DNA of 64,000 bases from Candidatus Woesebacteria bacterium (GCA_963749595.1 CAVVNJ010000008.1:3389-67388), one strand, 5' to 3'; shown: positions 37,805 through 56,164, counted from the first letter of the stretch. Notes: a model not told the origin generated them from the letters alone. A program made the numbers and translations.

Positions 37805-37878
37805 TGTCAGAGGTGGGAGTTGGACCCACGACCTGCGGTTTATGAATCCGCCGCTCTAACCAACTGAGCTACTCTGAC
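37805..37878 (-). tRNA. tRNA-Met or tRNA-Ile2 (anticodon CAT), elongator type
   Basis: Minus-strand cloverleaf: GTCAGAG acceptor, GCTC-AGTTGGTTA-GAGC D arm, anticodon loop TTCATAA, T arm GTGGG-TCCAACT-CCCAC. The T loop has C where U55 is expected, and A31/A39 is a mismatch. Confidence 0.8.
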
Positions 37879-37918
37879 AATAGGGATATATTATAACAGT
37901 TGGATGTTAGAATGACCC

Positions 37919-39112
37919 ATGGCAGCCGAGAAAACCCTAAAACTAGTTTGGCGCAGTTACAGCTTCGCCTTTTTGCGTGGTTTTTCTTTTTTTTCGGCCG
38001 TTTTAGTGCCTTTTTTCACCGATTGGGGTGGCATCTCGCTTACTCAAGCCCAACTCCTTCAATCCTGGTTTATGCTCTGGATCTTTTTGCTGGAGGTGCC
38101 AACCGGAGCCGTGGCCGATTTTTTGGGCCGGAAACATTCCCTCACTTTGGGGGCTATCGTGGCCACCCTCGGTCCCCTGATTTATGGTAGTTTTCCCCGT
38201 TTTGAATTTTTTCTAATCGGTGAATTTTTGTTTGCGTTGGGATGGGCACTCAGTTCCGGAGCCGATAGCGCCCTGCTTTACGACACGCTGAAAGAAGCGG
38301 GTCAAGAAGAGAAGAGCAAGCAGATTTTTGGCCGGGTCCACACTTTTCACTTACTGGGCATCTTTTTGGCCGCGCCAATCGGTGGTTGGCTGGCCGGACG
38401 ATTTGGGCTAAACGTACCGATGCTGCTGACCGCCGTGCCTAATCTGATCGCGATCTTCATTGCTTGGGGAATGCACGAGCCCAAGATTCAAGATCAAACC
38501 TCGGAAAGTAAGCGCTATCTGGTGATTGCTCGCCAAGGACTTAGTTACTTCCGGCATCACCGGGTCTTGCGCCGCTTGGCTTTGGACGCAATTTTAGTTG
38601 CTTCAGCCGCCTATTTTGTAATCTGGCTTTATCAACCGCTGCTGAGTCGCTTAAACGTTTCGGTGGCCTATTTCGGTTGGTTCCACGCTCTGCTTGTGGC
38701 GGTAGAGATGTTGATCGCCAGCAACTTTGAGTTTCTGGAAAAATTATTTGGTTCGGAAAAAGCCTATTTGCGTTTTAGCGCCGTCATTACTAGCGTGGCC
38801 TTTTTAATTGCCGCGGCGGTCCCAAATCTGATCACTGCCGTGGCTTTTATCGTACTGGCGGGCGGATTTGGTTTAACCAGGATCGAGTTGATGTCGGCCT
38901 ATATGAATCGCCTGATTCCCTCCGGACAAAGAGCGACAATCTTGTCCTCAGTTTCAATGTTCCGGCGGTTGGCGCTGGTGTTCCTCAATCCGCTGATCGG
39001 TTTTACGGCGGATAATTCGTTGCGTTTGGCGATGGTGACGGCTGGCGTGCTACCGCTGTTGGTGTTTCTTTTTTCGCCAATCGAGCAGGAATTATTCGAG
39101 ACTAATGAATAA
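37919..39112 (+). CDS. MFS transporter
   Basis: 397 aa with 12 hydrophobic segments. Loop 2-3 motif [10 protein letters not shown]. Confidence 0.8.
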
Positions 39113-39186
39113 AGAGTGCTATAATACCCGCCAGAAACAACTTTACCGCTCGGCACAAAGCTGGACGGCTAAGGGAGGATACAACT

Positions 39187-39456
39187 ATGGCTCTCGATCC
39201 ACAGATCAAAGCCCAAATCATTAAAGATTTCTCGCAAGGCGAAGGCGACACCGGTTCCCCGGAGGTCCAGGTTGCCCTGTTAACTAACCAAATCACCTCG
39301 TTGACCGGTCACTTGAAGACTCACAAAAAGGATAACCACTCCCGCCGCGGTTTGCTCAAGATGGTGGCCAAGCGCCGCCGCTTGTTGAACTTCCTGCTCC
39401 GTAAAGACGAAGCTCGCTATAAGAAGCTGATTGAGCGTCTGGGCCTGAACAAGTAA
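39187..39456 (+). CDS. rpsO: 30S ribosomal protein S15
   Basis: [52 protein letters not shown] promoter lies at 39115-39123. Confidence 0.95.
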
Positions 39457-39520: not shown

Positions 39521-39638
39521 TATGGGGAAAAACCCCAAAAATATGAAAGGAAGGGCAACGGAGTCCCCGAGTTTTCACAGCTGCTCTCGCTAACGTGGGC
39601 AAGTGCGAGAACTTGCGTTCCGTTCCCTTAAAACAGAT

Positions 39639-41895
39639 ATGTCTAATATCTATACCCGAACCGTAATGGTGGGCGACAAGTCCATCAAGCTGGAGGTCGG
39701 GAGATTTTCCGAACAAGCCGAAGCGGCGGTTCTGGCAACTTGCGGCGGCACGGTCGTGCACGCCACTATCGGGTTGGGTGGTGAGTCCAGCCTGGATTAC
39801 TTCCCGTTGTCGGTCGACTACGCGGAAAAACTTTATGCTGGTGGCCGGATCAAGGGCAGCCGTTGGGTTAAGCGTGAAGGCCGTCCCACTGATGGGGCGA
39901 TTTTGGCCGGACGCGTGATTGACCGTTCCATCCGTCCCTTATTTGCGGAAGGCCTGAAGCGCGAAGTCCAGGTCATCACCACTATTCTTTCGGTTGATCA
40001 CCAAAATAATCCGGATATGTTGGCCCTTTTGGCTACCGCAGCGGCCATCGAGATTTCCTCGATTCCTTTTGACGGTCCGTTGGCCGGACTGCGTGTTGGT
40101 TACTTCGCGGACGAAGACCGCTTTGTTTTTAACCCCACCTTTGAAGAGCAGGATAAGTCTCAACTCGACCTAATCCTGGCCGGTACTAAAGACGCCGTCG
40201 TGATGGTTGAAGCCGGCGCGAACGAAGTGACCGAAGCCGTGATGCTCCGGGCATTTGCGGAAGGTCATCAAGTAATTGCTCAGCTGGCTGATGAAATCGT
40301 CCAAATGCGCAACGAGATCGGCAAGCCCAAATTCGAGTTTAATCCTCCGCAATTTGATCAAACCCTGATGGAAACTCTGGCTTCCCGCTTTGCTGCGGAA
40401 ATCAAGGAAGCCGTTCATTTGCGCGCCACCTTGGCCAAAGACGACGGACTCAAGGCGATCATTGCGACTTTGATCGCTGAAGACGAAACGCTCCGTTTGC
40501 AACCGTTGGGCGAAATGCTCAACAAACTGGTCAAAAAGGAAGCCCGCCGCGGCACCCTGGAAGAGGGAATCCGTCCCGACGGCCGCAAGACCGACGAAAT
40601 CCGGGAAATCACCTGCGAAATTGACGTTTTGCCGATGACTCACGGTTCAGCCGTGTTCAAGCGCGGTTCAACTCAAGTTTTGAGCGTTACCACGTTGGCG
40701 TCCCCGGCTTTGGCCCAGTTGATTGAGGACATGGAAGGCGAACACGAACGCCGCTATATCCACCACTACAACATGCCGCCTTACGCCTCTGGTGAAGCTG
40801 GTCGGTTCGGCGCTCCTAAGCGTCGTGAAATTGGCCACGGTGCTTTGGCTGAGCGCGCTTTGCTCCCGGTTATTCCGGAGCAGGAGAAGTTCCCCTATAC
40901 CATTCAGGTGGTTTCGGAGGTCATGAGCTCTAATGGTTCGACTTCCCAGGGTTCGGTTTGTGGCAGCACCTTGGCCTTGATGGCCGCTGGTGTTCCGATT
41001 CGTAAGCCGGTGTCAGGTATCGCCATGGGATTGCTTAAACAGGGTGATCAGCACGTGGTCCTGTCCGACATTCAGGGTTTGGAAGATTTTACCGGCGACA
41101 TGGATTTCAAGGTGGCCGGTACTAAAGATGGTATTACCGCCATGCAGATGGATATCAAGATTAAGGGTATTCCGATGGAAGTGATGACCCAGGCGCTAGA
41201 ACAAGCCCGGGTTGGCCGTCTCTTCATTATGGATAAAATGTTGGCCGCCATTGCCGAGCCTCGTCCGGAATTATCGCCCGTACGCCCCCAAGGTGGAAAG
41301 CGTCATGATTCCGGTTAGTCGGATTGGTGAGCTGATTGGTCCTGGTGGCAAAACCATCAAGGCCATCAAGGAACGGACTGGTGCCGATATTGATGTCGAA
41401 GACAGCGGTATGGTCAGTGTCAGTGCAGTCGACATAGCGGCCATTAAGGAAGCGGTCAAGATTATTCAAGACATGATGCTGGAGATCGTGCCCGGCATGG
41501 AGTTTGACGGCCGCGTGGTCCGGATTGAAGATTACGGTGCTTTCGTAGAATTGGTGCCTGGACAAACTGGACTGGCCCACGTTTCGATGATGGCTCCCGG
41601 CTATGTCAAGGACCCGCGTGAAATTGTTAATCTGGACGATATTGTGCACGTTCGCGTTGCCGACGTTGAAGGTGACCGAATCCGTCTGAGCTTCTTAACC
41701 GCCGAACAAGAGGCCGAGGCGGCCGCCAACCGACCCCCGCGCGAACCCCGTGAAGGGGGAGATCGCCGAGGTGGTGGTGGCAGATTCGGTGGTCGGGATG
41801 ATCGCGGCGGTGATCGCGGCGGACGCAGTTTTGGCGGCCGCGGTGGTGATCGAGGCGGCGACCGAGGCGGTGACCGCGGTGGTCGGCGCTTCTAA
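39639..41895 (+). CDS. pnp: polyribonucleotide nucleotidyltransferase (PNPase); frame broken by an apparent 1-nt insertion near 41277-41281; C-terminal RGG-type tail
   Basis: Two RNase PH domains end in ...AIAEPRPELSP in frame 3. The expected continuation YAPKVESVMIPVSRIGELIGPGGKTIK (KH) and the S1 domain read in frame 1. The overlap region is 41212-41318. Confidence 0.85.
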
Positions 41896-42662
41896 CGGGT
41901 AAATCCGGTCGGGATAAATACGCGTTCGGCTAATTGTCGGGTGTAGGATGGCAGTACCGCACGTCGTTCCGTCAGCGATTCCAGATAGAGACCATGAAAA
42001 TAGGCCGCCCGATCTTCTTGACCGATTTGTCGCGCCTGTTTCGATAATAGACGAAGGGCATGTCTGGCGGCGGTCACTTCCGTCAGCATATAGTTGTATG
42101 ATTCCGGATCATATTCCCCTGATTTGTCGCTGATGTGTGATTTGTAATTATCTCGCCAATAGTATTGACGGTTTTCATTCTTGGACCTCAGGAACACTTG
42201 GGCGTGGTTTAGTTCCTCAATGATTAGCCAGCTGATGATTTCCCGTTCAGAGTTCAGTGCGGCCAGCAATTCTCCGTCAGGACTTCTTTTTGTTTCGGCC
42301 CAGCGGTTGTTTGTTCCGGTGCCACCCCAAGTTGTTTGGTGATAAAAGAGTTCACGCGACCGGTTCAGCACGACGTGGCAGCATCGGTATTTCCCCCGGG
42401 TATTCAATTCAGGCAGACAATAAGCGTGACAGAGAAATGGCTGACCACTAACCTTTAAGCACAAATGATCGGCCAGATGGATGCGGATTTTTGTGGCTTC
42501 AGTCGCCGAAATACCGAGTGCAAGAGCCTGTTTGGTGATGAGTTCCGAGAGATCTTCTGGCTTAAAACTCCCGAACGTTAAGGGTTCGGCGCTCCAATGG
42601 TAGGAGATCTGTAGATCTTGTTTTGTGGCTAGCTCGTTTTCTTTTTGATGTAAGTTGCGCAT
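41892..42662 (-). CDS. hypothetical protein, paralog A (256 aa)
   Basis: Shares SY-W-EPL-F, LNRS-ELF, WL-IEELNHAQ, LRLL, EDR-YF-LY and LAE-VFIPT blocks with the adjacent gene. Confidence 0.6.
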   Translation of the reverse strand: MRNLHQKENELATKQDLQISYHWSAEPLTFGSFKPEDLSELITKQALALGISATEATKIRIHLADHLCLKVSGQPFLCHAYCLPELNTRGKYRCCHVVLNRSRELFYHQTTWGGTGTNNRWAETKRSPDGELLAALNSEREIISWLIIEELNHAQVFLRSKNENRQYYWRDNYKSHISDKSGEYDPESYNYMLTEVTAARHALRLLSKQARQIGQEDRAAYFHGLYLESLTERRAVLPSYTRQLAERVFIPTGFTR

Positions 42663-42668
42663 TGGAGT

Positions 42669-43379
42669 CTACCGTGCAGAGCTTAAGGTCGATCGAGTGG
42701 GAATAAACACCTGCTCGGCCAAGGTATCGGAAACTACCGGAATGACGGCTTGCTGTTGTTGGAATGACTGCTGATATAACTGTCGAAAATAGCTTTTCCG
42801 ATCTTCTTGGTGCGTTAGTTCAGCCAATAGGCGGAGAACGTTCCAAGAGCCGACTACTTCAACTAGGTCAAAATTGGCTGATCTGTCCGGTTTATATCCC
42901 TTTTCGATCAGGTCCTGCCGAAATTCCCTTTGCAGGAGCTGAAGATCCACAATATTTCCAATACTGAGGTCGATTTGGGCGTGATTAAGCTCTTCGATGA
43001 GTAACCAGTGCAAGACCTCCCATGGTGACCGAAGATTGGCGAAGATTGGTTTGGCGGTGTCCGATTCTTGCCTGGCCGATTCTGAACCGCGTCGAAATAG
43101 TTCCAACGAGCGATTTAGGATAATGGTGCAGTGAACAATTTGGCCGGATTCGTCCCAAAATGGTTCACAGCGCGCGATGCGGTCGCCATCCCGATCCATC
43201 AAGAGTAAATTGATCTGCGTAGCCTGTTCAGTCGTGACGCCCAATTTTCCACCGACAATACGAGCTCGTTCTTCGACTTCGTCGGGATCATAACCACAAA
43301 AAATTAACGGCTCTTCCCAGTTGTAGGAAGCCTTGATCGGGTGGCCGGGATCTGGTTCGCCTTCTTTTCGGTTTCTCAC
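42669..43379 (-). CDS. hypothetical protein, paralog B (236 aa)
   Basis: Collinear similarity to 41892..42662 along its whole length. Confidence 0.6.
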   Translation of the reverse strand: MRNRKEGEPDPGHPIKASYNWEEPLIFCGYDPDEVEERARIVGGKLGVTTEQATQINLLLMDRDGDRIARCEPFWDESGQIVHCTIILNRSLELFRRGSESARQESDTAKPIFANLRSPWEVLHWLLIEELNHAQIDLSIGNIVDLQLLQREFRQDLIEKGYKPDRSANFDLVEVVGSWNVLRLLAELTHQEDRKSYFRQLYQQSFQQQQAVIPVVSDTLAEQVFIPTRSTLSSAR

Positions 43380-43398
43380 GGGAAATATTGTACCATCC

Positions 43399-43446
43399 GG
43401 AAGGTCTGACCTTCACGAAAATCACCTCTGGAAGGTCAGACCTTCC
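43399..43446. repeat. twin palindrome, locus c
   Basis: GGAAGGTCTGACCTTC and GGAAGGTCAGACCTTCC with centres 31 bp apart. Confidence 0.85.
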
Positions 43447-43464
43447 GCAGTGTACGATAAGAAT

Positions 43465-44584
43465 ATGGCTGATCTGCCCCAAAACGAGCCGGCTCAAGTA
43501 CAGCCAGACCACGGTGCAGGTTCCGTTGGACTCCCTGATCCAGGAGGAAGTCAACCGAGCTTCGTTCGCAGATCGAACGGTCCAAATTGCCGGCTGATCT
43601 TAAATTTAAGATCGAGCGGATGATGCGCCATCTGGAACGCGCGGCGCGACTCCAGGCCTACTCAGAGGAGTTCGAGCGGGTTTCCAAGTACATTGAGTGG
43701 TGTTCGCACAGGTACCTTGGGATACCGTCACCGAGGACGTGCTGGACATTGATAATGCCAAAAAGATTTTGGATTCACATCATTACGGCATGCGGGAAAT
43801 TAAGGACCGTATTCTGGAGTATGTGGCGATCTTGAATTTTCAGCACCGGCAACGTCCGGAAGATCGCAGCGCGATTCGCGCGCCGATCCTCCTGATGGTG
43901 GGCTTGGTTGGTACCGGTAAAACGACTTTTGCTTATTCGATTGCCGAGGCCTTAGGGCGCAAGATGGTGCGGATTCCTTTTGGCGGCATGGGCTCGGCTC
44001 GGGATTTGCGCGGCGAATCGCGCCTGCACTTGGAGGCTGAACCAGGCCTGGTGGTCAAAGGCTTGGTCCAGGCTGGAACCCGGAATCCAGTCATGCTGCT
44101 TGATGAAATCGATCGCGTGGCGGGAGAAACGCGCATGGATATCATGGGCGTGCTGGTCGAGTTGCTCGATCCTTCGCAGAATAACCGCTTTACCGATCAC
44201 TACTTGGATTATCCAGTCGACTTGTCGCAAGTGCTGTTCATTGCTACCGGCAACAACACTCGGGATATCGCGACGGCGGTCTACGACCGTATGGAGCATC
44301 TGGACATGCCCTCCTACACCGACGAGGAGAAAATTCGGATCGCTAAGGACTACACCATGCCCAAATTGCTGGCGGAATCCGGAATGCCGAAAGAGGCGAT
44401 TGTCATCTCTGAGGACATCTGGATTCGGATGGTGCGTCCGTTAGGTTTTGATGCCGGTATCCGCACGCTGGAGCGGACGCTGAAAAACGTCGTTTCCAAA
44501 TCGGCACGCCTGATGGTGGAGCGAAATATTCCCCAGGTGGTGATCACCCAAGAGAACGTCAAATATTTTGTGCCGGTCTATTAA
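43465..44584 (+). pseudogene. Lon-like AAA+ ATPase remnant (no N-domain, no protease domain, at least 2 frameshifts)
   Basis: The Lon-collinear sequence ...LPADLKFKIERMMRHLERAARLQAYSEEFERVSKYIEW / VFAQVPWDTV...HHYGMREIKDRILEYVAIL...GLVGTGKTT is spread over three frames, with switches near 43585 and 43700. It ends where the protease domain should begin. Confidence 0.75.
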
Positions 44585-44585
44585 C

Positions 44586-45285
44586 ATGATCTCGATCGTC
44601 ATACCGGCTTACAACGAAGAAAAAGTTATTGCTCAGACTTTGGCGGCGGTGGCCGAGCTCTGTTCGCCCGAGCCTTGGGAAGTAATTATAGTGGACAATG
44701 CCTCGACCGATCGCACGGTGGAGTTGGCCAAGCGCTGGGAAGACAAAATGGCGCTGCGGATTGTGCGGGAATCAAAGAAAGTCGGGGTGCGGCGCGGGCT
44801 AAGGGTTTCGCCGAAGCGCGCGGGCGGATCATTTTATCAACCGATGCGGACACTCAAGCCACCGCCGGACTGGATCGAGAAGATGCTCATACCGTTTGCG
44901 GGCGTCGGATGTGGTGGCGGCAGTTTGCCAACCCTACATTGACGACGGCAGTTGGCTGCACCAACTTTATTTTCAACAACTTCGGTTATCTTTACTTTTT
45001 GGTCTATCGATTATTCTGGCGCAGAATAATCCCCTGGTCGGATTTGGTTTTGCCGTGCGCCGGGATAGCTATCACCAGGCGGGCGGTTTTAATACCCGGT
45101 TGCGGGCGGAGGAGGATCTTGATTTGGGGTTGCGACTGGCCAAGCTGAGGCAGAATTTCTTTTGTGCCGGACGTGCGGGTTCATACTTCCGGTCGCCGGT
45201 GGCAAAATGGGGTTTTGTCCGGAATGTGGCCGTACGTGAAAACCAGCTATCGTGCGCCTTCGCCAACAGCATGAGCTGGATTTAG
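44586..45285 (+). pseudogene. glycosyltransferase family 2 pseudogene (at least 4 frameshifts)
   Basis: Conserved GT2 segments read in alternating frames: ISIVIPAYNEE...IIVDNASTDRT; GAARAKGFAEARGRIILSTDADTQA; PPDWIEKMLIPFA; VVAAVCQPYIDDGSW...FAVRRDSYHQAGGFN...EEDLDLGLRL; GRISFVPDVRVHTSGRRWQ. Confidence 0.75.
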
Positions 45286-45310
45286 ATGACGTGCGCTGAG
45301 GTTCTTGCCT

Positions 45311-45358
45311 GGAGGGTTTGACCCTCCAGGGGTGAGTTCGCGGAGGGTTAGACCCTGG
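45311..45358. repeat. twin palindrome, locus d (variant GGAGGGT..ACCCTCC)
   Basis: GGAGGGTTTGACCCTCC and GGAGGGTTAGACCCTGG with centres 31 bp apart. Both arms changed together relative to loci a-c. Confidence 0.75.
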
Positions 45359-45375
45359 CCTGGTACAATGGGACC

Positions 45376-45971
45376 GTGGATAAGATCGACGCGTCACCAA
45401 GCGATTCTAGAAAGAAATGGAAAGCCACTGCGCGGCATTGCCATTGTGTCAACCAGCCAACCGACGTGGTGATCGGCCACGGCAACCTGGACGCGGAAAT
45501 CATGTTTATCGGCGAGGCACCCGGCGAGAACGAAGCCATCCAGCGCGTGCCGTTCGTCGGGCGGGCGGGCCAGTTGCTCAATAAAACCTTGGCCGAAATC
45601 GGTATCCCGCGGGAAGAAGTCTACGTCTCCAATATCGTCAAGGCCCGCCCGCCCGGCAATCGCGACCCCTTGCCGGACGAAATCGCCGCTTATTTGCCCT
45701 ATCTGCTCGAAGAAATCGAGTTGATCCAACCGCAAACTTTTTGTTTCGCTCGGCCGTTTTGCCCTCAATTTTTTCCTGCCCGACGTCAAAATTAGCGCGG
45801 TCCATGGCGTTCTCCAGCGGTTCTGGTGGCAGGGTCATATTACTTATCTTTTGCCTCAATACCATCCGGCGGCCGCCCTGCGCGGCAACAGCCATGATGG
45901 CCGCTTTCCGGGCCGACATGGCCAAACTACCCAAGGCGGTTGACTTACGTCCGGAAGCAAGCGGCCAGTGA
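45376..45971 (+). pseudogene. uracil-DNA glycosylase family 4 pseudogene (at least 2 frameshifts)
   Basis: GHGNLDAEIMFIGEAPGENE...PFVGRAGQLL...VKARPPGNRDP reads in frame 1. The continuation LGRFALNFFLPDVKISAVHG...YHPAAALR reads in frame 2. The C-terminal AMMAAFRADMAKLPKAV reads in frame 3. Confidence 0.7.
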
Positions 45972-46035
45972 CGAAGAAGTAGAGAATATAAAAAATGCGT
46001 TGCTGTAATATGAAGTCAGGCAACTAAAGGAGTTT

Positions 46036-47694
46036 ATGTTAAAGATTTTTCCCATGGGCGGGATCGGTGGCGTCACCAAGAACATGTTCTCTGTACGAAC
46101 TCGACCAGGACTCTGTTGGTCGTCGACGTGCGGCATCGGTTTTCCTGACGCCACGATGCCCGGTGTCGAGTTCCTGATTCCGGATACTCAGTATCTACAG
46201 GATCGGATCAAGCAAGGCGCAACTCTTCACGGCATTGTTCTCACTCATGGCCATGACGACCATATTGCGGCGCTACCCTACGTTCTGCGCGAAATGGGCG
46301 CGGAAAATGTCCCGATCTACGGCTCACCGCTGACCGCCGAGTTCGCCATGAGCCGGATGATCGATCAGGGTGTGGACAAAACCATCGAGCATTTTGACGA
46401 GGGGCGGATTAAAGTCGGACCCTTTGAGAGTCGAGACCGTGCGGGTGACCCACTCGGTGCCGGATGCCCGGCACTTTGTCATCCGCACTCCGGAAGGAGT
46501 GATTTACCACGGCTCGGATTTTAAAATCGATTTAACGCCGGTGGACGGGGTAAATATGGACCTGCAGCGTATTGCCGAAATCGGTCGCGAGGGGGTTCTT
46601 TGCGCTTTGATCGACTCGCTGCGGATTGAGCGGGAAACTCCCGGCCAATCGGAAGCGGTGGTCGGCCCCGCCCTGCGCCGCGAAATGTACGGCGTGGAGG
46701 GCAAGGTTTTTGTTACCCTGATGAGTTCCAGCATTCATCGAATCCAGCAAGTGATTGATGTAGCCGCGGAATTCGGACGAAAAGTAACCTTCATTGGCCG
46801 CTCGGTCGAGCAGAACGTCAACACCGCCATGAATCTGGACATGCTCAATTTCCCGGCCAACAGCAAGCTCAATAAACGCAATCTGGACAAAGTCGCCGAC
46901 AGCGAGCTCTGCGTGATTATCGCCGGTAGCCAGGGTCAGCCGGGATCGTCCCTGGTTCGGGCGGTCAGCGGCGAGCACCGCTACATCACGATGGCCAAAG
47001 GCGACAAGGTAGTCTTTTCTTCCGAGCCGATCCCAGGCAGTGAAACCGACGTCTACCGCACTATCGACGAAATTGCCGCCCGCGGCGTCGAGGTTGTTTA
47101 TTCCGACATTGAGGATGATTTGCACGTTTCCGGTCACGCCGGGGCGTACGAGCAGATGTTGATGATTCATCTGTCTGCGGCCCAAGTTTGTGTTCCCGGT
47201 TGGTAGTGAAGAGCGTCACCGCGTGCGTTTCACCAAAGTGATTGGGCGCCATGGTTACCAGCCCGAACCAGATTGTTTTGCCCGATTACGGGGTGATCGT
47301 TGAGCTGGATCAGAAAGGTTTCCGCTACGGCGAGAAGGTTAAGCTGCGCGAACGAACAGTTAGCGGCGAAGGCGTCAGCGATGTGCTGGCCTCGGCGATC
47401 AGCGAACGGCAGCGGTTGGGCGCGCAAGGAGTGATGGTGGTGTCTTTGGTGGAAAAAGTTGGCCAGGTCGAAGAGGAGGAGATTGGGGTTTCCACCCGTG
47501 GTTTCCAGCTGGGCGAAGAATACGCCGCTGAGGAATTTGCCCGAGCCGTCAAAGCGGAGGTGATGCGGATCGTTAATGCTTTCTCCGGGCCCGGCGATCA
47601 GTTGCGCGCGGAACTGGAAAAGGCGCTGCAGCGGTACCTGATGAAGGAAATCGGCCGATCGCCATTGGTGGTCGTTTCGATTACGTCACTTTAA
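46036..47694 (+). pseudogene. rnj: ribonuclease J pseudogene (about 6 frameshifts)
   Basis: THGHDDHIAALPY, HSVPDA, GSDFKID, GSQGQPGS and HVSGHAG motifs are present. Frame switches occur at 46087-46129 (frames 1,2,3,1), near 46424, near 47175 and near 47245. The HGE motif reads GSE. Confidence 0.8.
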
Positions 47695-47867
47695 AAAATA
47701 TCTTTCACGATAAACTTCACGCGGTGAGGGAGATAGGTATTAATTTCTGGATTTTCAACATGGTCCGTCTTGTACAAGATGTTGTACAAGTTGCCACTAG
47801 TTGAAAATGGGCCAAAGCGGATGTATCTCCCCAAACTCGTGGAATTGCGTGAAAATTTAACCCAGGA

Positions 47868-48598
47868 TTATTTCCGGGGTTCGGCAGAGATGCCCGTGCC
47901 GCTTGAGCCAACCGCGATGGATCAGGTGTTCACTATCAAACCGATTAACCAGTTCCCAGAAAGACGACGGAGTGGTTCAGGTGCACTCGGTGGGCCAATT
48001 CATGAATGACCACGTAGCGCATTACCGGCAAAGGCGTATGGACCAGGCGCCAATTCAGGGTGATCGCCCCGTGGTGCGTGCAGCTGCCCCAGCGCGAAGT
48101 AGTATCGCGGAAGCGCAGCGCCGGTACCTCCACGCCCATTTTGTCGGCGTACTCGATCAGCAACGGCGTCGTAAATTCGCTCGCTTGTGATTTTAGCCAG
48201 CGTTCGAGTTGTTGGAAAGCGGAGTCGGCCGTGAAACTGACCGGATGAATCAGGATCCGGCGATCCTCGGTCGGGACTACCCGATTAGTAGTCATCTCGA
48301 TCGAGTCGCGCAGTTCCAGTTGATGTTTTTCTCCCAGGTACAACATCGTGTTAGGCGGCAGATCGCCATGGCGTCCCAATTGAGCCTGGATCCAAGGCGC
48401 CTGTTGCCGTAAAAAGGACTCGATCACCGACCGGCGGACATAGCGCGGCGTAGTCAGACGCAAACCGTTACGGGTCAAACTCAGGCGGATATTGCGGGCA
48501 ATCGGGGAGACGACCCACTCGATTTCCCGACTGGTGCCGTCCGGCAGCTTTAGTTGCATGGGTTCAGTTTTGGCCATGGGTGGGAACAATAGTAACAC
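47868..48598 (-). pseudogene. YgjP-like (DUF45/M48-type) metallopeptidase with a C-terminal frameshift
   Basis: HELAHRVHLNHSVVF is followed by a premature stop. Shifting one base near 47953 restores the expected FWELVNRF...RGWLKRHG tail, ending at 47868. Confidence 0.65.
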
Positions 48599-48642
48599 AT
48601 GCTGGATCCTGCCAGATATCAGATATAATATGGTCTGGACCA

Positions 48643-48727
48643 GGAGGTGTCGCCTAGTGGCCGATGGCAGCGGGTTGCTAACCCGCGACTCGAAAGGGTC
48701 ACGTGAGTTCGAATCTCACCACCTCCG
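48643..48727 (+). tRNA. tRNA-Ser (anticodon GCT)
   Basis: GGAGGTG acceptor, 3-bp D stem, anticodon arm GCGGG-TTGCTAA-CCCGC, long variable arm, T arm GTGAG-TTCGAAT-CTCAC, discriminator G. A TATAAT box lies at 48623-48628. Confidence 0.9.
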
Positions 48728-48882
48728 CATCAGTTGAAAAGTTCTGATAGACCCGTCTAATACCGCTGAATGGGCTGATGGTGCCGACGAATATTTCCTC
48801 AAGGGCGAACTTCTTGAAACCACAGCCGTGTAAGTATCAAATTCCCCTGGTATAAGACGATCAAACCGCCTCGATAGTGTGG

Positions 48883-49191
48883 TTATTTCCCGATTTTGTT
48901 GTGCCGTGGCTGAAGGCGACGAATCTCGGTTGCTTCAAAAGTTTCGGCTTCGGCAATCGTGGCGCAAGCGCAGTAGCCAAAATGCGTTACTCCTTCGAAG
49001 AAATCCTCACGCAAATGTTGGAGCAGTCGCCCGCGCATACCTTCTTGACCAGTGGCCTTCCCCACATACAAAACATCAAGATTTCCATTTGCGGCAATGC
49101 AGCCGCAGTAATACACACCGATAGCCGAAGACTTCCAGCCTCCGACGACTCCTTGGCTATAGTTATAATGTCCTTGGTAGTTTTGTACCAT
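48883..49191 (-). CDS. GIY-YIG domain nuclease-like protein (102 aa)
   Basis: GVYYCG...LYVGKATGQEGMRGRLLQH...E...N pattern. Confidence 0.6.
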   Translation of the reverse strand: MVQNYQGHYNYSQGVVGGWKSSAIGVYYCGCIAANGNLDVLYVGKATGQEGMRGRLLQHLREDFFEGVTHFGYCACATIAEAETFEATEIRRLQPRHNKIGK

Positions 49192-49316
49192 AGTGCCTCC
49201 TTAAGGCTAGTTTGTATTTCCGAAGGTTGAAAATCGTTTCGATTGCCTTTGGTTATCAATACGATACAACGCTCCAAGGGTTGCTGTCAACTGGTTGATC
49301 GTGGTAAAGTATCAAT

Positions 49317-49640
49317 ATGATTTATGAAGAAATTGGCGCCAAGATAAAAAAACTTCGTGAAGACAGAGGGTTGACCAAACAAGCGCTGGCGCAAGAGCTG
49401 GGTTATGAGTCTGACACAGCAATTCATCTCATTGAGGCTGGCAAGCGGAAGATTTCACTTGAGAGGCTCAAAATCATCGCCAACTATTTTAAAGTCTCTA
49501 TCTCAGATTTTGTTTCTGAAGATGTAGGGAAAGAAGACTTAGACATCATGACTGCGCTTCGATCAGACGAACAGCTTGACGAACGCGATGTGGCCCAAAT
49601 CTCAACTTTTATTGACTTCATTAAACAGCAAGGTAAATAA
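49317..49640 (+). CDS. XRE-family HTH transcriptional regulator
   Basis: IGAKIKKLREDRGLTKQALAQELGYESDTAIHLIEAGKRKISLERLKIIANYF. Confidence 0.85.
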   Translation: MIYEEIGAKIKKLREDRGLTKQALAQELGYESDTAIHLIEAGKRKISLERLKIIANYFKVSISDFVSEDVGKEDLDIMTALRSDEQLDERDVAQISTFIDFIKQQGK

Positions 49641-49641
49641 G

Positions 49642-50196
49642 ATGGATGACGACTCAACTGACATTGAGGCCGATGAGATCATAAAAGACCACAAGTCCAA
49701 AATCCTCTACATCAAAAAAAGAGCTCGAAAGTTGATTGATGACTCGAAGGCGACTGTTCCTGTTCAAATTCATACTATTGTCCAGTATCTGACCCAGGAT
49801 CAGTCGTATAAAATCTTTCCCAAGGCGATGGATCTGAAAGAAAAATTCTCAGGACAAATTGTAAGAAGTGGTAATGCGGCGGGGATCATTTATAACTCAA
49901 CTCATTCAGTTGTTCGGCAGCGATTCACATTTGCTCACGAGCTGGGCCACCTCATCCTTGAGCATGATTTGAGGGTGCAAACATACAATGAAATGATCAA
50001 CCTTAAGACAAAATCGCCGATCGAACGTGAAGCGAATCTCTTTGCAGCAGAACTGCTGATGCCCAAAACTCTCGTGAGTGATTACCTCAAAAAACACCAG
50101 GTAAAAACCGTTAAGGAATTGGCAGAGATATTTAATGTAAGTGAAGAAGCGATGTGGTACAAAATCACAGACGAAAATCTGATTCGCTATATGTGA
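49642..50196 (+). CDS. ImmA/IrrE family metallopeptidase
   Basis: HEXXH in FAHELGHLILEH plus a downstream E...EANLFAAELLMP. ATG at 49642 immediately follows the XRE stop. Confidence 0.8.
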   Translation: MDDDSTDIEADEIIKDHKSKILYIKKRARKLIDDSKATVPVQIHTIVQYLTQDQSYKIFPKAMDLKEKFSGQIVRSGNAAGIIYNSTHSVVRQRFTFAHELGHLILEHDLRVQTYNEMINLKTKSPIEREANLFAAELLMPKTLVSDYLKKHQVKTVKELAEIFNVSEEAMWYKITDENLIRYM

Positions 50197-51482
50197 TTGG
50201 TTATCAACTGTTTTGCTCTCAAGATAAACTTCGTTCTCACCATCCCCAACACCTGCTGTCGATCCTCCGCTGATCCAGTTTTCAGAATGTGTTTGAGATA
50301 TTCTCTTGCCATGGAGTCATCGTTAGGTTGTACGGCAGAAAGTTCCATTTCAGTGAGATTTCCTGAAAGATATTCTTGGTGAAGTACTTGTGACCTCAAC
50401 TTGTGGAACCGCTCGATGTCTGCCCTGATGTGTTTGGTGAGCAGACCTTGGTTAATTTTAATCTCACTGATGTGTGCGAGAAGTTGCTGGATCAGATCGG
50501 CTTCCGTGATGTAGGGTTCGTCACAATCGTAGTCCACCGATCTCGCGCAGTGGTAGTAGATATGTTTGGTGAACCCACCACCCTTCAGCTTTTTGTATTT
50601 TTCTTCTGCCGTCACCCCTCCGCCACAGGAACCACAGATACAAAGCGTCTTGAATGGGAATTGTTGTTTGTGCCAGTTTTTTGGTGGAACGAGCAATTGC
50701 TTTTGGACTTTATCAAAAAGTTCTTTTGTAACGAGGGGTTCATGTGTGCCTTTGTACCATTCATCGCCATACTGGAACTGGCCGTAATAAAACGGATTTT
50801 TGAGCGTGGCATAGATGCGACTTAGTGATAACCGTTTACCACTTTTCGTAGTGAAATCTACGGTTTCTAGCCACTTCTTTAGTGTCCTGCCGCTGTGCCC
50901 TTGCTCGGCTACTCTGCGGAATAACTCCTTTACGACCAGCGAACGATCAGGATCGGGGACTACCTCACTAATACGGTTGTTGCGCAGAACATTGAGGTAA
51001 CCAAGCGGTGCCACCCCCGGCCGAACCCCCATTTCACACTTTGCCCTGAGGCCTCGTTTGACGTTCACACCTCGGTTATCGTTCTCCAGCTTGGCTTGTG
51101 AGCAGAGAATCATGAGAAGAAACTTTTCATTAGGACTGTTAGCGAAGCTTTGCGAATAGGTTTGGATCTTTAGGAGTTTGCCCTGATCCATGAGGTCAAC
51201 CAGCGACCCTAAGTCTCCAGCATTGCGACTCAGTCTATCAGGAGCCCAGGTCAGGATGGCATTAAACTTGTCACCCCTAATTTCATTAAGTATTTCTACA
51301 AACATAGGTCGTGATCCAGAAGCTTTAGCAGAGTGGCTTTCCCGTTTCGTTTCTACGATGGCTATATGTTCACGCTCCGCCAGCGTCAGCATTTCTTTAA
51401 TTTGCGAGTCAATGGACATGGTTTGGCGTTCGTCAGACTCAGAAGATTTGCGGGCATAGAGGCAGTAACGAAGCTCGTTCAC
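50187..51482 (-). CDS. large serine recombinase
   Basis: N-terminal resolvase domain YARKSSESDERQTMSIDSQ (catalytic Ser region), a recombinase domain, and a zinc-ribbon CGSCGG...YYHC. 431 aa. Confidence 0.85.
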   Translation of the reverse strand: MNELRYCLYARKSSESDERQTMSIDSQIKEMLTLAEREHIAIVETKRESHSAKASGSRPMFVEILNEIRGDKFNAILTWAPDRLSRNAGDLGSLVDLMDQGKLLKIQTYSQSFANSPNEKFLLMILCSQAKLENDNRGVNVKRGLRAKCEMGVRPGVAPLGYLNVLRNNRISEVVPDPDRSLVVKELFRRVAEQGHSGRTLKKWLETVDFTTKSGKRLSLSRIYATLKNPFYYGQFQYGDEWYKGTHEPLVTKELFDKVQKQLLVPPKNWHKQQFPFKTLCICGSCGGGVTAEEKYKKLKGGGFTKHIYYHCARSVDYDCDEPYITEADLIQQLLAHISEIKINQGLLTKHIRADIERFHKLRSQVLHQEYLSGNLTEMELSAVQPNDDSMAREYLKHILKTGSAEDRQQVLGMVRTKFILRAKQLITNHI

Positions 51483-51667
51483 TCTGTACCTCCTTTGACT
51501 TCTTTAATGAGGAGGTAGAGCGAATGAACTGTCTTTTCCAATTCGGCTAAGCAGTGTGATTTTCGAGTACTTTGGTAGAACTTGAGTGCCAGTTGGCATT
51601 GGTCGAGAAGGTTGCTTGCTTGGTTAATATGGTGGGCGGCACCCGGTGTTTCTTTCATCAAGGACAC
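51479..51667 (-). CDS. small hypothetical protein (62 aa), translationally coupled to the recombinase
   Basis: 4-nt overlap with the recombinase start. Predicted helical. Confidence 0.4.
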   Translation of the reverse strand: MSLMKETPGAAHHINQASNLLDQCQLALKFYQSTRKSHCLAELEKTVHSLYLLIKEVKGGTE

Positions 51668-51706
51668 AAGGTACCGCCACGTTTTTAGAAGTCTAGCCGC
51701 AGTTTG

Positions 51707-53218
51707 CTACCACAGCCGATTCCATGGCCCATGATCAAATTCGCTCGCTAGTCCTCGATCAAAAATATCCTGACCGCCAACAAAGAAGATACGCGGCATC
51801 TGCTTGTTTTCCTTCATAATTTGGTTAATGAGGATGGAGAAGGCATCAGCGAGGTCGTCGTGTTTTTCTATACCCAGACCCACCATTTGCTCAATAAGCT
51901 GTTCACAGCCCTTCCTAGGAAAAAGAATGCTGCCACTGCGAATGAGGTGGGTGGTTAAAGCCAAACGCGTTCGTTTATCCGTCGAACCGATCTTAACTCC
52001 CTCTACATCAATATCTTCATGCTTGAGCCACTGGATAAGTGCATCCTGGTATCCCACGCTTTCAATGTAAACCGTGGCATCGTGGCCACCATTGAGTGAT
52101 CCAATCGCCGCTTTCACCGTTTCCACGGTCGTCGGGAAATCCATCTTCACGTTGATGAGATTTGGGAGGATATAGATTTTCTGTTTGTCTTCGTGGTCAA
52201 AGATGAGAGCGCCCACCATGGCTGTGTAGTCAGCGGATGCTTTTTCACTGATCGCCAAGTCCACTCCGAGGGCGGCGTAGACAAAATGACTACCTCGACC
52301 TGTTGGTGGCACGGCTTCATAGTATTGAATCCAATCGCGCTGCACCACGCGGTCGGCATCCGCAATGATACGCAGGAGATACTCGCGATACCACGCCGCT
52401 TCGTTGCCTATCGCTTGTTTTTGTCGCTCGATGGCTTCCAGATCAGGGTACTTTCCCGGCCAAGCAATTTGATTCTCTTCGGACAGAAGTGGTACAGCCA
52501 AGAAGCGACCATTCATTTTGCCTTCTTCAAAGAGTTGCTTAACGCGCATAAGCAGGCAATCTTCGTGCAGGAGGTTGCCGACAATGACAACCTTTGTGCT
52601 GTCATCCCCAATTGGGAGCACTTCACCCGTTAACCACGAGAAAGTGCGATCCCGACCTTCACGGGTTTTGACTGAGTTCAGATCTTCTACGTCATCGCAG
52701 ATGATGAGATCGGGGCGGTATCTGCCGTGCTTAATACCACGGATGCTTTGTTCCGTAGATGCGGCAACTATCCGGGCACCATAGTTTTTAAGCACGATGG
52801 AGTTGGCGGCCCATTCGTCGGAAAATTCCTCAAAGGGCCCGATGTCTTCTTTTAAGAGCTCATTGTTCTCCAATTCGCGTTTGATGTTGGTAAGATGCAG
52901 TCTCGCTTGTTGCTGAGTTTGACTCAGGATTAACACAAACTTCTTTTGCATCATCCCCGTGATCGCCCAGATGGGAAACGAGGTGGTCATGATCGTGGTT
53001 TTTGCTGAACCTCTAAAGGCCACGGCGGCGCTAATCCGCGTTGCTTGATCCTGGGTGATCGCGAACATCTCATGGTGAAATGGCGCGAAGGGATACTGGA
53101 TATATTCGCCCAGATAGAGCGAGAAAAACCAGTAATGGCTTTGGTTCGCTAGAGATACCCGCATACTGCGGTTATCCTTAATAAGTTGTAATTCTTGGGG
53201 TGTGAGTGTTTGACTCAT
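51707..53218 (-). CDS. phage terminase large subunit (TerL)
   Basis: Walker A-like FRGSAKTT, Walker B LIICDDVED, and a C-terminal RNase H-like nuclease half (GVDLA...DYTA...HDDLADAF). Confidence 0.8.
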   Translation of the reverse strand: MSQTLTPQELQLIKDNRSMRVSLANQSHYWFFSLYLGEYIQYPFAPFHHEMFAITQDQATRISAAVAFRGSAKTTIMTTSFPIWAITGMMQKKFVLILSQTQQQARLHLTNIKRELENNELLKEDIGPFEEFSDEWAANSIVLKNYGARIVAASTEQSIRGIKHGRYRPDLIICDDVEDLNSVKTREGRDRTFSWLTGEVLPIGDDSTKVVIVGNLLHEDCLLMRVKQLFEEGKMNGRFLAVPLLSEENQIAWPGKYPDLEAIERQKQAIGNEAAWYREYLLRIIADADRVVQRDWIQYYEAVPPTGRGSHFVYAALGVDLAISEKASADYTAMVGALIFDHEDKQKIYILPNLINVKMDFPTTVETVKAAIGSLNGGHDATVYIESVGYQDALIQWLKHEDIDVEGVKIGSTDKRTRLALTTHLIRSGSILFPRKGCEQLIEQMVGLGIEKHDDLADAFSILINQIMKENKQMPRIFFVGGQDIFDRGLASEFDHGPWNRLW

Positions 53219-53652
53219 ACGTCCTCCTTTATATTTTGTACTTCCTCAGTTGAGACATTTTGGGTGGGAATTAAGGCAGCCAGTTCCAAAGCTTTCATGA
53301 CCACAGCTTCTTGTTCTGTGGTCAGCTCTTCCGGTGCACGTTTGAGTTGTGCCGTCACCTCCACGCGAGTGGCGTAGCGGGCATGGTGATGTTTGAGCCA
53401 AAAGATAATGGCAGTGAGATTTTTGTCACGAATGGCAGAAAGAAGTTGGGATTCCGCCATATCATTAACCAGTTGCTCACCAGCAAATACTGCGTCGTCC
53501 ACTGCTTTAGCAAATTCACTATCTTGCTTCTTCCAGCGGTAGAAGGTAGCTCGAGCCAAACCAACTTTTTCGCATGCCACCTGAATAATAGGAACCTTAC
53601 GCAGGTGCTCAATAATGGTATTTTTGGTGGCGGCTGGACTAACCTTGCTCAT
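53215..53652 (-). CDS. terminase small subunit-like HTH protein
   Basis: IQVACEKVGLARATFYRWKKQDSEFAKAVDDA (HTH) directly upstream of TerL. ATG at 53652 overlaps the upstream stop (ATGA). Confidence 0.6.
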   Translation of the reverse strand: MSKVSPAATKNTIIEHLRKVPIIQVACEKVGLARATFYRWKKQDSEFAKAVDDAVFAGEQLVNDMAESQLLSAIRDKNLTAIIFWLKHHHARYATRVEVTAQLKRAPEELTTEQEAVVMKALELAALIPTQNVSTEEVQNIKEDV

Positions 53653-54977
53653 AGCTTGACCGCCTTTTGTCCGGTCAACTTCTCCCATCGTTTTTTAATC
53701 ACTTCTGCGTATACAGGTGATTTCTCCATGCCAAAGCAGCGACGTTTCATCTTGGTACAGGCGATAAGGGTTGATCCACTTCCCGAAAATGGTTCGACCA
53801 CAAGATCACCACGTTTTGTGAGCATCTTGATATACGGGATGAGAATCTCAATTGGCTTCGTGCCAAAAATGACACCTTGTCCCGAATGCTTTTCATCACT
53901 GGCGTTGTACTCTATGAAGTCAGTCGGTTGGTTCTTCTTACCATGCTTGTATCCTTCCCACTGTGGTTTGCCGGAGATGGCATAGAGTGCTGTTTCATAT
54001 TCTTCCTGCAAACCATCAACCTCAGATTCTAGGTTGTTAGGTACATCTGTATTTGGTGAAGCTCCGACCATCGCAATGTCATGCTTGCTAAAGAATTTGT
54101 ATTTAGCACTAAATCCTTGATGGCGATTGGGCAAATGCCAAACAATCATGTTTTTGACCTTCCAATGTTTCTCCATTTCACCCCAGATGGTGCGAATGTT
54201 CTTCCAGTTTTCGTAGACAATGATCGAGAAGCTGTCTTTTTGGCAGGTGGCGATATTGGCCATCCATTTTTCGGTGAAGTCGGGCGGTAAAACATCCGTT
54301 TCCAAATACCTTCGATCTCGTTTGGCACCAAATCCCGTAGTAGGTTTGCCGTTACGGGATTTACCGTGAAGGTAGTCCAAGATGTAGGGTGGGTCGGTCA
54401 GACACATATCAGCCTGCTGACCATCCATGAGTTTGGTAAAGTCTTCTGGAATTGTTGAATCGCCACACATGAGTCGACTATCACCTAACGCATACACATC
54501 ACCTTTTTGGACTTCGACCTTATGAATATCGAGCTTCTCGAGTTCTTTTTGAAGATCAAACTGCTCTGGTGTATCGAGATCAAGGTCAAAGATGATATCG
54601 AGTTCTTCACTAGAGAACCCGACGTCCGAAAGCATGTCAGTGCCAAAATCCTTGAGGAGTGTCCAATCAAACTCACCAACATTTCTGTTGAGACGCAAGT
54701 TAAGCTCTTTTTCTTTTTCCAAATCTGGAATGATTAGGTACACAGCGGGGACTTCGGTCAGGCCGAGTTTTTTGGCCGCTTCCAGTCGCATGTGGCCACC
54801 AATGACCACATTCTCGCGACCTGGTGCGCTATTAAGGATAATGGGGTCGACCAAGCCAAAGCGCTTGATGCTCTCAATGAGCTGACTCAAGGCATCCTCG
54901 CTCCAAGTACGCGGGTTGTATGGAGAGGGATTGAGTTTCCCGATCTCGACTTGTTGAATGGATAGTTGTTGTGACAT
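53649..54977 (-). CDS. ParB-like nuclease domain fused to a DNA methyltransferase (N6-A/N4-C type)
   Basis: N-terminal PSPYNPR...GGHMRLEAAKKLG (ParB/Srx fold). LTDPPY catalytic motif and C-terminal VVEPFSGSGSTLIAC SAM-binding motif. Confidence 0.85.
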   Translation of the reverse strand: MSQQLSIQQVEIGKLNPSPYNPRTWSEDALSQLIESIKRFGLVDPIILNSAPGRENVVIGGHMRLEAAKKLGLTEVPAVYLIIPDLEKEKELNLRLNRNVGEFDWTLLKDFGTDMLSDVGFSSEELDIIFDLDLDTPEQFDLQKELEKLDIHKVEVQKGDVYALGDSRLMCGDSTIPEDFTKLMDGQQADMCLTDPPYILDYLHGKSRNGKPTTGFGAKRDRRYLETDVLPPDFTEKWMANIATCQKDSFSIIVYENWKNIRTIWGEMEKHWKVKNMIVWHLPNRHQGFSAKYKFFSKHDIAMVGASPNTDVPNNLESEVDGLQEEYETALYAISGKPQWEGYKHGKKNQPTDFIEYNASDEKHSGQGVIFGTKPIEILIPYIKMLTKRGDLVVEPFSGSGSTLIACTKMKRRCFGMEKSPVYAEVIKKRWEKLTGQKAVKL

Positions 54978-55025
54978 ATGCGTCCTCCTACAAGGAGAAC
55001 GCGCTCACAGATTAGCTAATAGGGT

Positions 55026-55778: not shown

Positions 55779-55831
55779 TACTTCATACTACATGGAATTT
55801 CTTACTAACATATTCAATTCCCTTTACCCAT

Positions 55832-56164
55832 TCAGAGATTCCCTCCAAAAATCTCAGACGCAAATTTTCTCCAAAAGTGCGTGCAAGACGCAACATATTC
55901 TCTTGGGCTTGTTTTATCATCTCTTGATATGACTTCGAGGAGGCCATCAGCCGTTCGAGCTATTTCTAGAACTGGTTCGATAAAGTTTTGTTGTATTTTC
56001 GCCACAACATCGAATAGACCAGCAAAAGGATTAAATACAGGCGGAGAAAAAGAGTGCGCTAAGCTCGTGGCACATTCAACCAGATTCTGTTGCGCAGCCC
56101 CAGCTACTTGCGATATGACGGACACAGAAATGTGTTCTTTTGGTGTGACTTGATCCATTAACAA
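55832..56164 (-). CDS. hypothetical protein (110 aa)
   Basis: ORF co-directional with the element operon. No motif recognised. Confidence 0.35.
   Translation of the reverse strand: MLMDQVTPKEHISVSVISQVAGAAQQNLVECATSLAHSFSPPVFNPFAGLFDVVAKIQQNFIEPVLEIARTADGLLEVISRDDKTSPREYVASCTHFWRKFASEIFGGNL

Follow-up and report, generated by a model that had tools for sequence, protein, structure and literature searches.

The window, i.e., the whole 64,000-nt stretch of DNA analysed, carries a run of conserved genes that ends at tRNA-Ser(GCT) (48643-48728, plus strand). Fragmentation of these genes was evident from the ORF list and from Pfam matches on ORF fragments. Frameshift-aware protein-to-DNA alignment against intact orthologues located 23 frame-breaking events in six genes between positions 41277 and 47968: one in PNPase, three in a Lon-like AAA+ ATPase, seven in a GT2 glycosyltransferase, five in a family-4 uracil-DNA glycosylase (UDG), six in RNase J, and one in a YgjP-like metallopeptidase. 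The events were densest at 44.5-46.5 kb, inside the 41.3-48.0 kb stretch.

A previous sequence-only reading had described five frameshifted genes at 43465-47960. All five were confirmed as fragmented, each located as claimed, while the limits had been drawn too narrowly, as the PNPase event near 41277 was overlooked. The counts given for the ATPase (at least two), GT2 (at least four), and UDG (at least two) were understated. For RNase J, the approximately six events claimed agree with the six found, three of them within 46090-46128, and the single YgjP event placed near 47953 was found at about 47968.

The PNPase gene (pnp; 39639-41895, plus strand) is split into fragment ORFs 39603-41318 and 41212-41895, with RNase_PH/PNPase and KH+S1 domains. 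A single extra base lies at 41277 (±3 nt) in the context TCG[C]CCG (extra bases are bracketed throughout), and its removal yields a protein of 751 aa with 84% identity to the 765-aa orthologue of relative L001. Inside the affected stretch follow two tandem paralogues of unassigned function (41892-43379, minus strand; 256 and 236 aa), 33% identical to each other over their full length. They had been reported as uninterrupted, and both proved intact, aligning over their full length. They were not found in L001-L003, and a database search gave one distant homologue only. The 2.2-kb error-free gap over these paralogues has an exponential-gap p of about 0.015, corrected for 22 gaps; such a gap is not expected if the stretch is uniformly poor and counts against a reading of the events as consensus errors.

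The stand-alone Lon-like ATPase gene (43465-44584, plus strand) contains one extra base at 43504 (CAG[C]CAG), another at 43556 (AAC[C]GAG), and two at 43707-43708 (TCG[CA]CAG). After removal, the protein matches the length found in both relatives and is 82% identical to the L001 orthologue.

The GT2 gene (44586-45299, plus strand) has the largest number of events. At 44779, one base is probably missing from an A-run (alternatively, two are extra); the length of the homologue P0122 is matched only with one base restored. Single extra bases occur at 44858 (CAA[G]CCA), 44901 (GCG[G]GCG), either 44947 or 44959 according to the homologue chosen, 45148 (CTG[A]GGC), and, from the alignment, 45248-45254, and two extra bases lie at an ambiguous position in 45014-45030. 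The corrected protein is 66% identical to P0122 (235 aa); against PF00535 it scores 114.6 bits over positions 1-164 of 168, compared with 65.7 bits over positions 1-70 before correction.

In the UDG gene (45368-46008, plus strand), all five events are single extra bases. Removal of the first, at 45413 near the N-terminus, restores the conserved peptide HQAIL-EMES, which is present in L003 and, in L001, can be read in frame ahead of the annotated start. The others were placed at 45450-45459 by alignment and at 45733 (CCG[C]AAA), 45887 (GGC[A]ACA), and 45939 (GCG[G]TTG). The protein carries the GEAPG and HPAAALR motifs, and its PF03167 match improves from 85.5 to 110.1 bits on correction.

RNase J (46036-47694, plus strand) is likewise interrupted by single extra bases, at 46090 (TTC[T]CTG, where homopolymer extension is impossible), 46112 (GAC[T]CTG), 46128 (GAC[G]TGC), 46429 (GAG[A]GTC), 47174 (CTG[T]CTG), and, from the alignment, 47259-47268. 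The public protein P0002 terminates at 47174 in the shifted frame. The corrected sequence is collinear with P0121 (552 aa) and contains PF00753, PF22505, PF07521, and PF17770 in order (Lactamase_B, beta-CASP, RMMBL, and RNase_J_C). The YgjP-like gene (47857-48577, minus strand) has its extra base at 47968 (coding strand TCC[G]TCG), carries the HELAH motif, and on correction extends its PF01863 match from 1-187 to 1-207 of 207.

Deletion of the extra bases gave six full-length ORFs with native stop codons and no internal stops. The corrected lengths of the ATPase, GT2, RNase J, YgjP, and UDG were 371, 235, 550, 239, and 211 aa, against 371, 235, 552, 240, and 207 aa in the orthologues. Pfam domains were full length and catalytic motifs intact. 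Complete ORFs of orthologue length without other lesions are the outcome expected of an artefact. Decay would be marked by nonsense mutations and faster amino-acid change; neither was found, as there were no stops and, over the four genes compared, 82 lineage-unique amino-acid changes in the window versus 84 in L001 and 114 in L003.

Two further features had been taken as signs of decay. The ATPase consists of AAA and Lon_lid domains only, and the N-terminal substrate-binding and C-terminal S16 protease domains are indeed absent; the orthologues in both relatives are also 371 aa long and lack the same domains, so this observation is no evidence of decay. A complete Lon of 813 aa is encoded at 31037-33478. 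The 371-aa protein is a stand-alone ATPase by native architecture rather than a truncated Lon. In RNase J, the HxHxDH motif is intact (THGHDDH), and GSE was correctly read at the HGE site. Because the relatives have GGE and not HGE at this site, GSE is a native trait of the clade or lineage rather than a sign of decay.

In the rest of the 64 kb, a Viterbi frame tracker based on codon usage detected no gene with an internal frame switch on the same strand. The distribution is therefore 23 events in 6.7 kb versus none detectable in 57 kb, and uniform placement would have a probability of about (6.7/64)^23. The events are clustered far beyond chance, and since the remaining window is without a detectable frame break, the cause is local.

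The indel spectrum was strongly one-sided. Twenty of the 23 events were +1, two were +2, and at most one was -1, all being 1-2 nt in size. Among the 19 +1 events analysed, only two fell in runs of at least three, and for at least eight a homopolymer extension is impossible. In natural bacterial pseudogenes, the insertion-to-deletion ratio is 0.76 and the mean deletion about 19 nt (PMC6054270); at this ratio, the probability of at least 22 insertions among 23 events is about 1e-7. The deletion-biased spectrum of broad sizes characteristic of gene decay was thus not found (22 insertion events versus at most one deletion).

The mostly non-homopolymer contexts ruled out homopolymer slippage (454, Ion Torrent, or nanopore) as the main cause. 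Insertion-only residual errors are atypical of some long-read consensus methods, which counts against an origin in consensus error. Another idea was that both alleles of a strain SNP had been written side by side, the second of them forming each extra base, as could be the case in GAG[A]GTC (Ile/Val) and TCC[G]TCG (Ala/Ser), for which relatives have both residues, and in [T]CTG (Leu TTG/CTG). This explanation was not established, as only 5 of 11 clear doublets were transition pairs in a hand count, with ambiguous positions.

The gene order is shared by L001/L002 and L003, where no gene is broken, and in two relatives it extends from tRNA-Met to tRNA-Ser, again with all genes intact. In L001, the same tRNA-Ser comes after YgjP. 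Close relatives were not found among species-representative genomes by protein patterns or an exact 54-mer. Orthologues from L001, L003, P0121, and P0122 showed no shift at homologous positions. The idea that the block was formerly mobile was rejected on synteny. It belongs to the core tRNA-Met to tRNA-Ser segment that is syntenic in L001, and the mobile, prophage-like element lies on the opposite side of tRNA-Ser, which forms the junction with it and the right limit of the conserved core segment.

An independent comparison was provided by the Logan k-mer assembly of run ERR12037366, examined through its gene table. One contig carries both flanking lineage-specific paralogues at 100% protein identity and with identical spacing, and, 86 nt from paralogue 2, an uninterrupted gene of 338 codons starting at the equivalent of ATG 43465. 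In the window, the frame from 43465 closes after 52 codons. As the Logan frame stays open for 338 codons, all three ATPase events must be absent there; the gene table of an independent assembly thus contradicts, indirectly, these three of the 23 events only. Two fast-evolving paralogues that are 100% identical at the protein level and identically spaced argue for one population shared by the contig and the Logan run.

The Logan contigs are short, with breaks at the equivalents of 44482 and 48700 (the latter inside tRNA-Ser). No contig was found for 44482-48700, and the contig with the MFS gene stops within S15, short of the PNPase event. Searches gave no Logan protein of near-100% identity for RNase J or GT2. 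An exact look-up of the corrected proteins in a collection of 15 billion proteins gave no match, a weak result, since junction residues are ambiguous and one query was 333 rather than 338 aa long. Start-codon variants of the ATPase, aimed at the 90% cluster of the 338-aa Logan protein, led only to the window's own 295-aa fragment, alone in its cluster. A literature search on accession ERR12037366 found no paper.

The insertion-only spectrum, the full restoration of ORFs, the lack of a substitution excess, the intact syntenic orthologues, and the uninterrupted independent ATPase together make it very probable that the frameshifts stem from errors of the deposited consensus and not from mutations of the organism. 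False pseudogenes are known to arise from indel errors in long-read or collapsed-haplotype assemblies (PMC8445201; PMC9262707; PMC12007338). At this locus, a 6.7-kb stretch of a 265-kb metagenome contig would have gained about 24 spurious inserted bases and lost at most one, probably when a region that was difficult locally went through consensus building or polishing of the long-read type. The difficulty may have been low effective depth, or a strain mixture adjoining the variable prophage junction. We infer that the 20 events outside the ATPase gene are artefacts of the same kind as the three within it, and that the technical cause was long-read consensus or strain mixture. The real genome would most likely encode intact PNPase, stand-alone Lon-like AAA+ ATPase, GT2, family-4 UDG, RNase J, and YgjP. 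The evidence thus favours the alternative mentioned in the sequence-only reading, an assembly region of poor quality or with collapsed strains.

Genuine gene decay, the explanation preferred there, is contradicted by the spectrum, ORF restoration, substitution counts, relatives, and Logan ATPase. It would imply very recent pseudogenisation of six adjacent core genes by many small insertions, e.g., under relaxed selection on a redundant segment, and is considered improbable. It would be consistent with the presence of the shifts in the public record, where P0002 and P0244 are truncated products, with the tight localisation of the events, and with the fact that no intact RNase J, UDG, or GT2 copy from the same population was found. 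Against it, insertions of 1-2 nt, largely outside homopolymers, are the opposite of the natural deletion bias. If, by our own estimate, each indel is accompanied by roughly ten substitutions, about 200 substitutions and about ten stops would be expected with 23 neutral indels, yet neither nonsense codons nor excess amino-acid change was seen. Furthermore, the genes are core and syntenic, PNPase and RNase J being key RNA-turnover enzymes in a small genome, and the ATPase gene is open in the independent assembly.

If the insertions were real, one CPR strain would very recently have lost PNPase, RNase J, UDG, GT2, the Lon-like ATPase, and YgjP together, through a strongly insertion-biased, locally targeted mutational process adjoining a prophage integration site, which seems very improbable. 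Slightly less credit still is given to a contig that is correct for a minority strain with real indel polymorphisms, the Logan contig representing a co-occurring strain with intact genes. The shortness of the Logan contigs and their breaks at 44482 and 48700 suggest microdiversity or low depth, but every argument against real decay holds here too, and the identity and spacing of the paralogues in contig and Logan argue for one population. Recoding, in which the shifts are real but overcome by programmed +1 frameshifting or quadruplet decoding, the proteins still being made, has next to no probability: nearly all events share the +1 sign and the six in RNase J sum to zero modulo 3, but it is effectively refuted by the lack of any slippery or quadruplet motif common to the 19 sites, whose contexts all differ, and by the unshifted homologous positions in relatives, while the ATPase and UDG never regain frame, the Logan ATPase gene is open without a shift, and a mechanism expected to be genome-wide left no trace in 57 kb of neighbouring genes.

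The apparent pseudogene block is therefore, in all likelihood, not biology but an error in the local consensus of a public genome. The value of this result lies chiefly in quality control. Six genes of a contig from an uncultured CPR (Patescibacteria) organism would be annotated as pseudogenes or fragments, as exemplified by the public proteins P0002 and P0244, which would lead to wrong inferences on gene content or metabolism, such as a lack of RNase J, UDG, or PNPase. The earlier suggestion that RNase J and UDG may be missing from the organism should be abandoned. The analysis also offers a read-free recipe for telling artefact from decay, combining the sign and size spectrum of indels, homopolymer context, absence of nonsense codons, a relative-rate test on corrected proteins, and the gene tables of independent k-mer assemblies.

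When compared with known systems, the locus resembles programmed +1 ribosomal frameshifting of the prfB type in that the protein can be read only with a +1 shift. Programmed shifts are single, occur at a conserved motif, and are conserved in relatives. In contrast, the window has up to seven shifts per gene, with no motif and no counterpart in relatives. Pseudogene clusters formed by reductive evolution, as in Burkholderia leaf-nodule symbionts, similarly show several frameshifts per gene with intact relatives (PMC6054270); real pseudogenes, however, display more deletions than insertions, broad sizes, nonsense mutations, and accelerated substitution, none of which occurs in the window. False pseudogenes of long-read assemblies differ in that the errors here are limited to 6.7 kb of an otherwise clean contig, and residual nanopore errors are typically associated with homopolymers, whereas those in the window are almost all insertions, mostly outside homopolymers. 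As in false pseudogenes caused by indel errors in long-read or collapsed-haplotype assemblies (IDEEL-type truncated proteins; tools such as Kastor), known also from mosaic consensus assemblies, single-base indels split conserved genes, and correction restores ORFs of orthologue length (PMC8445201; PMC9262707; PMC12007338).

Five recognisable genes between 43.4 and 48.0 kb were found solely as out-of-frame pieces, according to the ORF list and to Pfam searches with those pieces: a Lon-like AAA+ ATPase, a GT2 glycosyltransferase, a family-4 UDG, RNase J, and a YgjP-like peptidase. The sequence-only reading had placed them correctly, the ATG of the ATPase falling exactly at 43465, and had favored gene decay. 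It overlooked PNPase, directly upstream, which is also broken at about 41277 into ORFs 39603–41318 and 41212–41895. The frameshifts are already in the public record as truncated products (proteins P0002 and P0244) and were not produced by window preparation. The closest RNase J matches were Woesebacteria and Beckwithbacteria proteins, the source of the window being an uncultured member of the Patescibacteria (CPR, Microgenomates-like).

Syntenic loci of relatives were reached via the RNase J homologues P0003 and P0001 (77% identical to the window). At loci L001/L002 the gene order is tRNA-Met, S15, PNPase (765 aa), three small ORFs, AAA ATPase (371 aa), GT2 (236 aa), UDG (195 aa), RNase J (456 aa), an unknown protein (240 aa), YgjP (240 aa, minus strand), and tRNA-Ser(GCT). 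At locus L003 it is AAA ATPase (371 aa), a protein kinase, UDG (207 aa), RNase J (456 aa), and YgjP (245 aa). All genes are uninterrupted in both L001/L002 and L003.

Frame-breaking events were mapped with a purpose-written dynamic-programming aligner that places proteins on DNA and models frameshifts as states of their own. The references were the orthologues from L001 and L003, a 552-aa RNase J of the Woesebacteria cluster (P0121), and three GT2 homologues retrieved using a hand-reconstructed query. In total, 23 events were found: one in PNPase (41277), three in the ATPase (43504, 43556, 43707-8), seven in GT2 (44779, 44858, 44901, ~44947, ~45015, 45148, ~45254), five in UDG (45413, ~45459, 45733, 45887, 45939), six in RNase J (46090, 46112, 46128, 46429, 47174, ~47259), and one in YgjP (47968). 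Twenty consist of one extra base and two of two extra bases; the event at 44779, in an A-run of GT2, is best explained by a single missing base, the one reading that keeps the length equal to that of the closest homologue. Density was highest at 44.5–46.5 kb (16 events per 2 kb).

Elsewhere in the 64 kb, no intragenic frame switches were detected by a Viterbi frame tracker whose codon-usage model came from the long ORFs of the window. Of the catalogued events, the tracker directly recovered just two, the one in PNPase and the one at 46429 in RNase J; the remainder of the block it split up as non-coding, so closely spaced events elsewhere would escape it. Compared to three homologues, RNase J also has an additional Asn codon near 46300, which may be real or may represent three more inserted bases. 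The aligner's apparent frameshift at 39635 lies in the S15-PNPase leader (39595–39640), which resembles L001 closely enough to be aligned as if it were coding, although it precedes the likely start of PNPase (MSNIYTR, 39639); this signal is probably a conserved untranslated leader and not a true shift.

We hold with high confidence that the frameshifts are assembly errors, the alternative already raised in the sequence-only reading, and not gene decay. The decay reading was rejected on the indel spectrum, sequence context, restored ORFs, substitution counts, and an independent assembly. Deletions outnumber insertions in natural bacterial pseudogenes, a curated set containing 396 deletions (7,421 nt in total) versus 300 insertions (1,340 nt in total), a ratio of 0.76 (PMC6054270). 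At this natural ratio, 22 or more insertions among 23 events correspond to p ~1e-7, and the size of every event was 1–2 nt. Slippage in runs is by far the main source of spontaneous +1 mutations; only two of the 19 analysed +1 events sit in a run of three identical bases, and for at least eight of the 19 homopolymer extension is impossible under any equivalent placement.

When the extra bases were deleted and the one base restored, six ORFs with zero internal stops and native stop codons were obtained. Corrected lengths, compared to those of orthologues, were 371/371 for the ATPase, 235/235 for GT2, 550/552 for RNase J, 239/240 for YgjP, 211/207 for UDG, and 751/765 for PNPase. Full-length Pfam matches were observed after correction (GT2 1–164 of 168, YgjP 1–207 of 207, RNase J all domains), and the motifs Walker A/B, HGHDDH, GEAPG, HPAAALR, and HELAH were all retained. 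Base substitutions exceed indels roughly ten to one, so some 200 substitutions and roughly ten stops would be expected alongside 23 neutral indels. In three-way alignments of the ATPase, UDG, RNase J, and YgjP, unique residues numbered 82 in the window, 84 in L001, and 114 in L003, with no excess in the window.

The missing Lon N-domain and protease domain, previously taken as decay, are a matter of native architecture. The stand-alone Lon-like ATPase (371 aa, AAA and Lon lid) lacks both domains in the relatives as well (window 43465–44584; L001 7454–8569; L003 4934–6049), and its position adjoining UDG and RNase J is kept across this CPR clade. The organism also encodes a complete Lon (813 aa, 31037–33478) with the N-domain, AAA, lid, and S16 protease, and the stand-alone ATPase matches its AAA module at about 38% identity. 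The canonical HGE of RNase J is likewise replaced in relatives, reading GGE in L001, L003, and P0121 and GSE in the window (47175–47215). The C-terminal domain of RNase J is kept in the window and P0121 (about 550 aa) and absent from the 456-aa forms of L001 and L003. The PNPase C-terminus (41750–41895) is a low-complexity Arg/Gly/Asp tail with GGDRGG repeats, as in the L001 orthologue.

Independent evidence came from Logan, a k-mer assembly. A database search with paralogue 1 of the tandem pair at 41892–43379 led to the window's own protein P0242 and thence to a 2613-bp contig of run ERR12037366, carrying both lineage-specific paralogues (236 and 256 aa) at 100% identity with the same 6-nt spacer. 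A divergent gene begins 86 nt from paralogue 2, the exact equivalent of window 43465, and according to the contig's gene table it is open for 338 codons up to the contig end. The window frame that starts with the ATG at 43465 stays open for only 52 codons, and the two frames following it end at 43597 and 43835. All three ATPase events must therefore be absent from the Logan contig. The Logan contigs of this run are short, corresponding to window 37856–39415, 41866–44482, and 48700–54174; k-mer assembly apparently failed across 44482–48700, the span of 19 of the 23 events. No near-identical Logan protein to RNase J or GT2 was found in the database searched.

The formerly mobile segment proposed earlier is contradicted by the intact syntenic genes of the relatives, which make the block a conserved core segment. 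Programmed frameshifting was excluded, the shifts having no shared motif, not being conserved in relatives, and not being genome-wide.

Since the remainder of the contig is clean, the trouble is local, and the assembly errors probably stem from local consensus trouble. The 265-kb contig, compared to k-mer contigs of only 1.5–5.5 kb from the same population, suggests a long-read assembly. For the exact technical mechanism, which we infer, one idea considered was that both alleles of a strain SNP were written one after the other, each extra base being the second allele; a number of sites would be compatible with this idea, such as GAG[A]GTC (Ile/Val) and TCC[G]TCG (Ala/Ser). The paralogues are intact although they lie inside the affected span. 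Their clean gap of 2.2 kb is unlikely under uniform errors and would make sense if the paralogue insertion is in one strain only or the PNPase event is separate.

The paralogues (minus strand, 256 and 236 aa) are 33% identical, have a conserved IEELNHAQ motif in common, and occupy the PNPase-ATPase interval, where relatives carry three small ORFs. Neither gave a Pfam domain, and a search of 5.8 billion proteins returned only one distant homologue (37%, JGI). Paired small palindromes lie upstream of the ATPase (GGAAGGTCTGACCTTC / GGAAGGTCAGACCTTCC, intergenic 43386–43459) and of UDG (CCTGGAGGGTTTGACCCTCCAGG / GGAGGGTTAGACCC, intergenic 45308–45356), and a TTGTACAAG repeat lies between RNase J and YgjP (47751–47808); these may be operators or terminators.

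Directly 3' of tRNA-Ser(GCT), a prophage-like mobile element (48700–57900) was observed, in which GC drops from about 0.55 to 0.38–0.48. It encodes an XRE repressor (49317–49640), a large serine recombinase (50187–51482), a terminase large subunit (51707–53218), an rve transposase fragment (57381–57902), an ImmA/IrrE M78 peptidase, a ParB-N6/N4 DNA methylase fusion, and a MerR regulator. A stretch of about 1.6 kb (55788–57417), flanked by the MerR gene and the rve fragment, is nearly devoid of coding signal, has no ORF of at least 120 aa, and may be degraded mobile-element DNA. L001 is without the element, having unrelated genes after the same tRNA, and one Logan contig starts within tRNA-Ser, at the equivalent of 48700. 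A strain-variable junction beside the block would suit collapsed-strain consensus errors.

The main use of the finding is caution when annotating this genome. False pseudogenes from indel artefacts have been documented in long-read and mosaic assemblies (PMC8445201; PMC9262707; PMC12007338).
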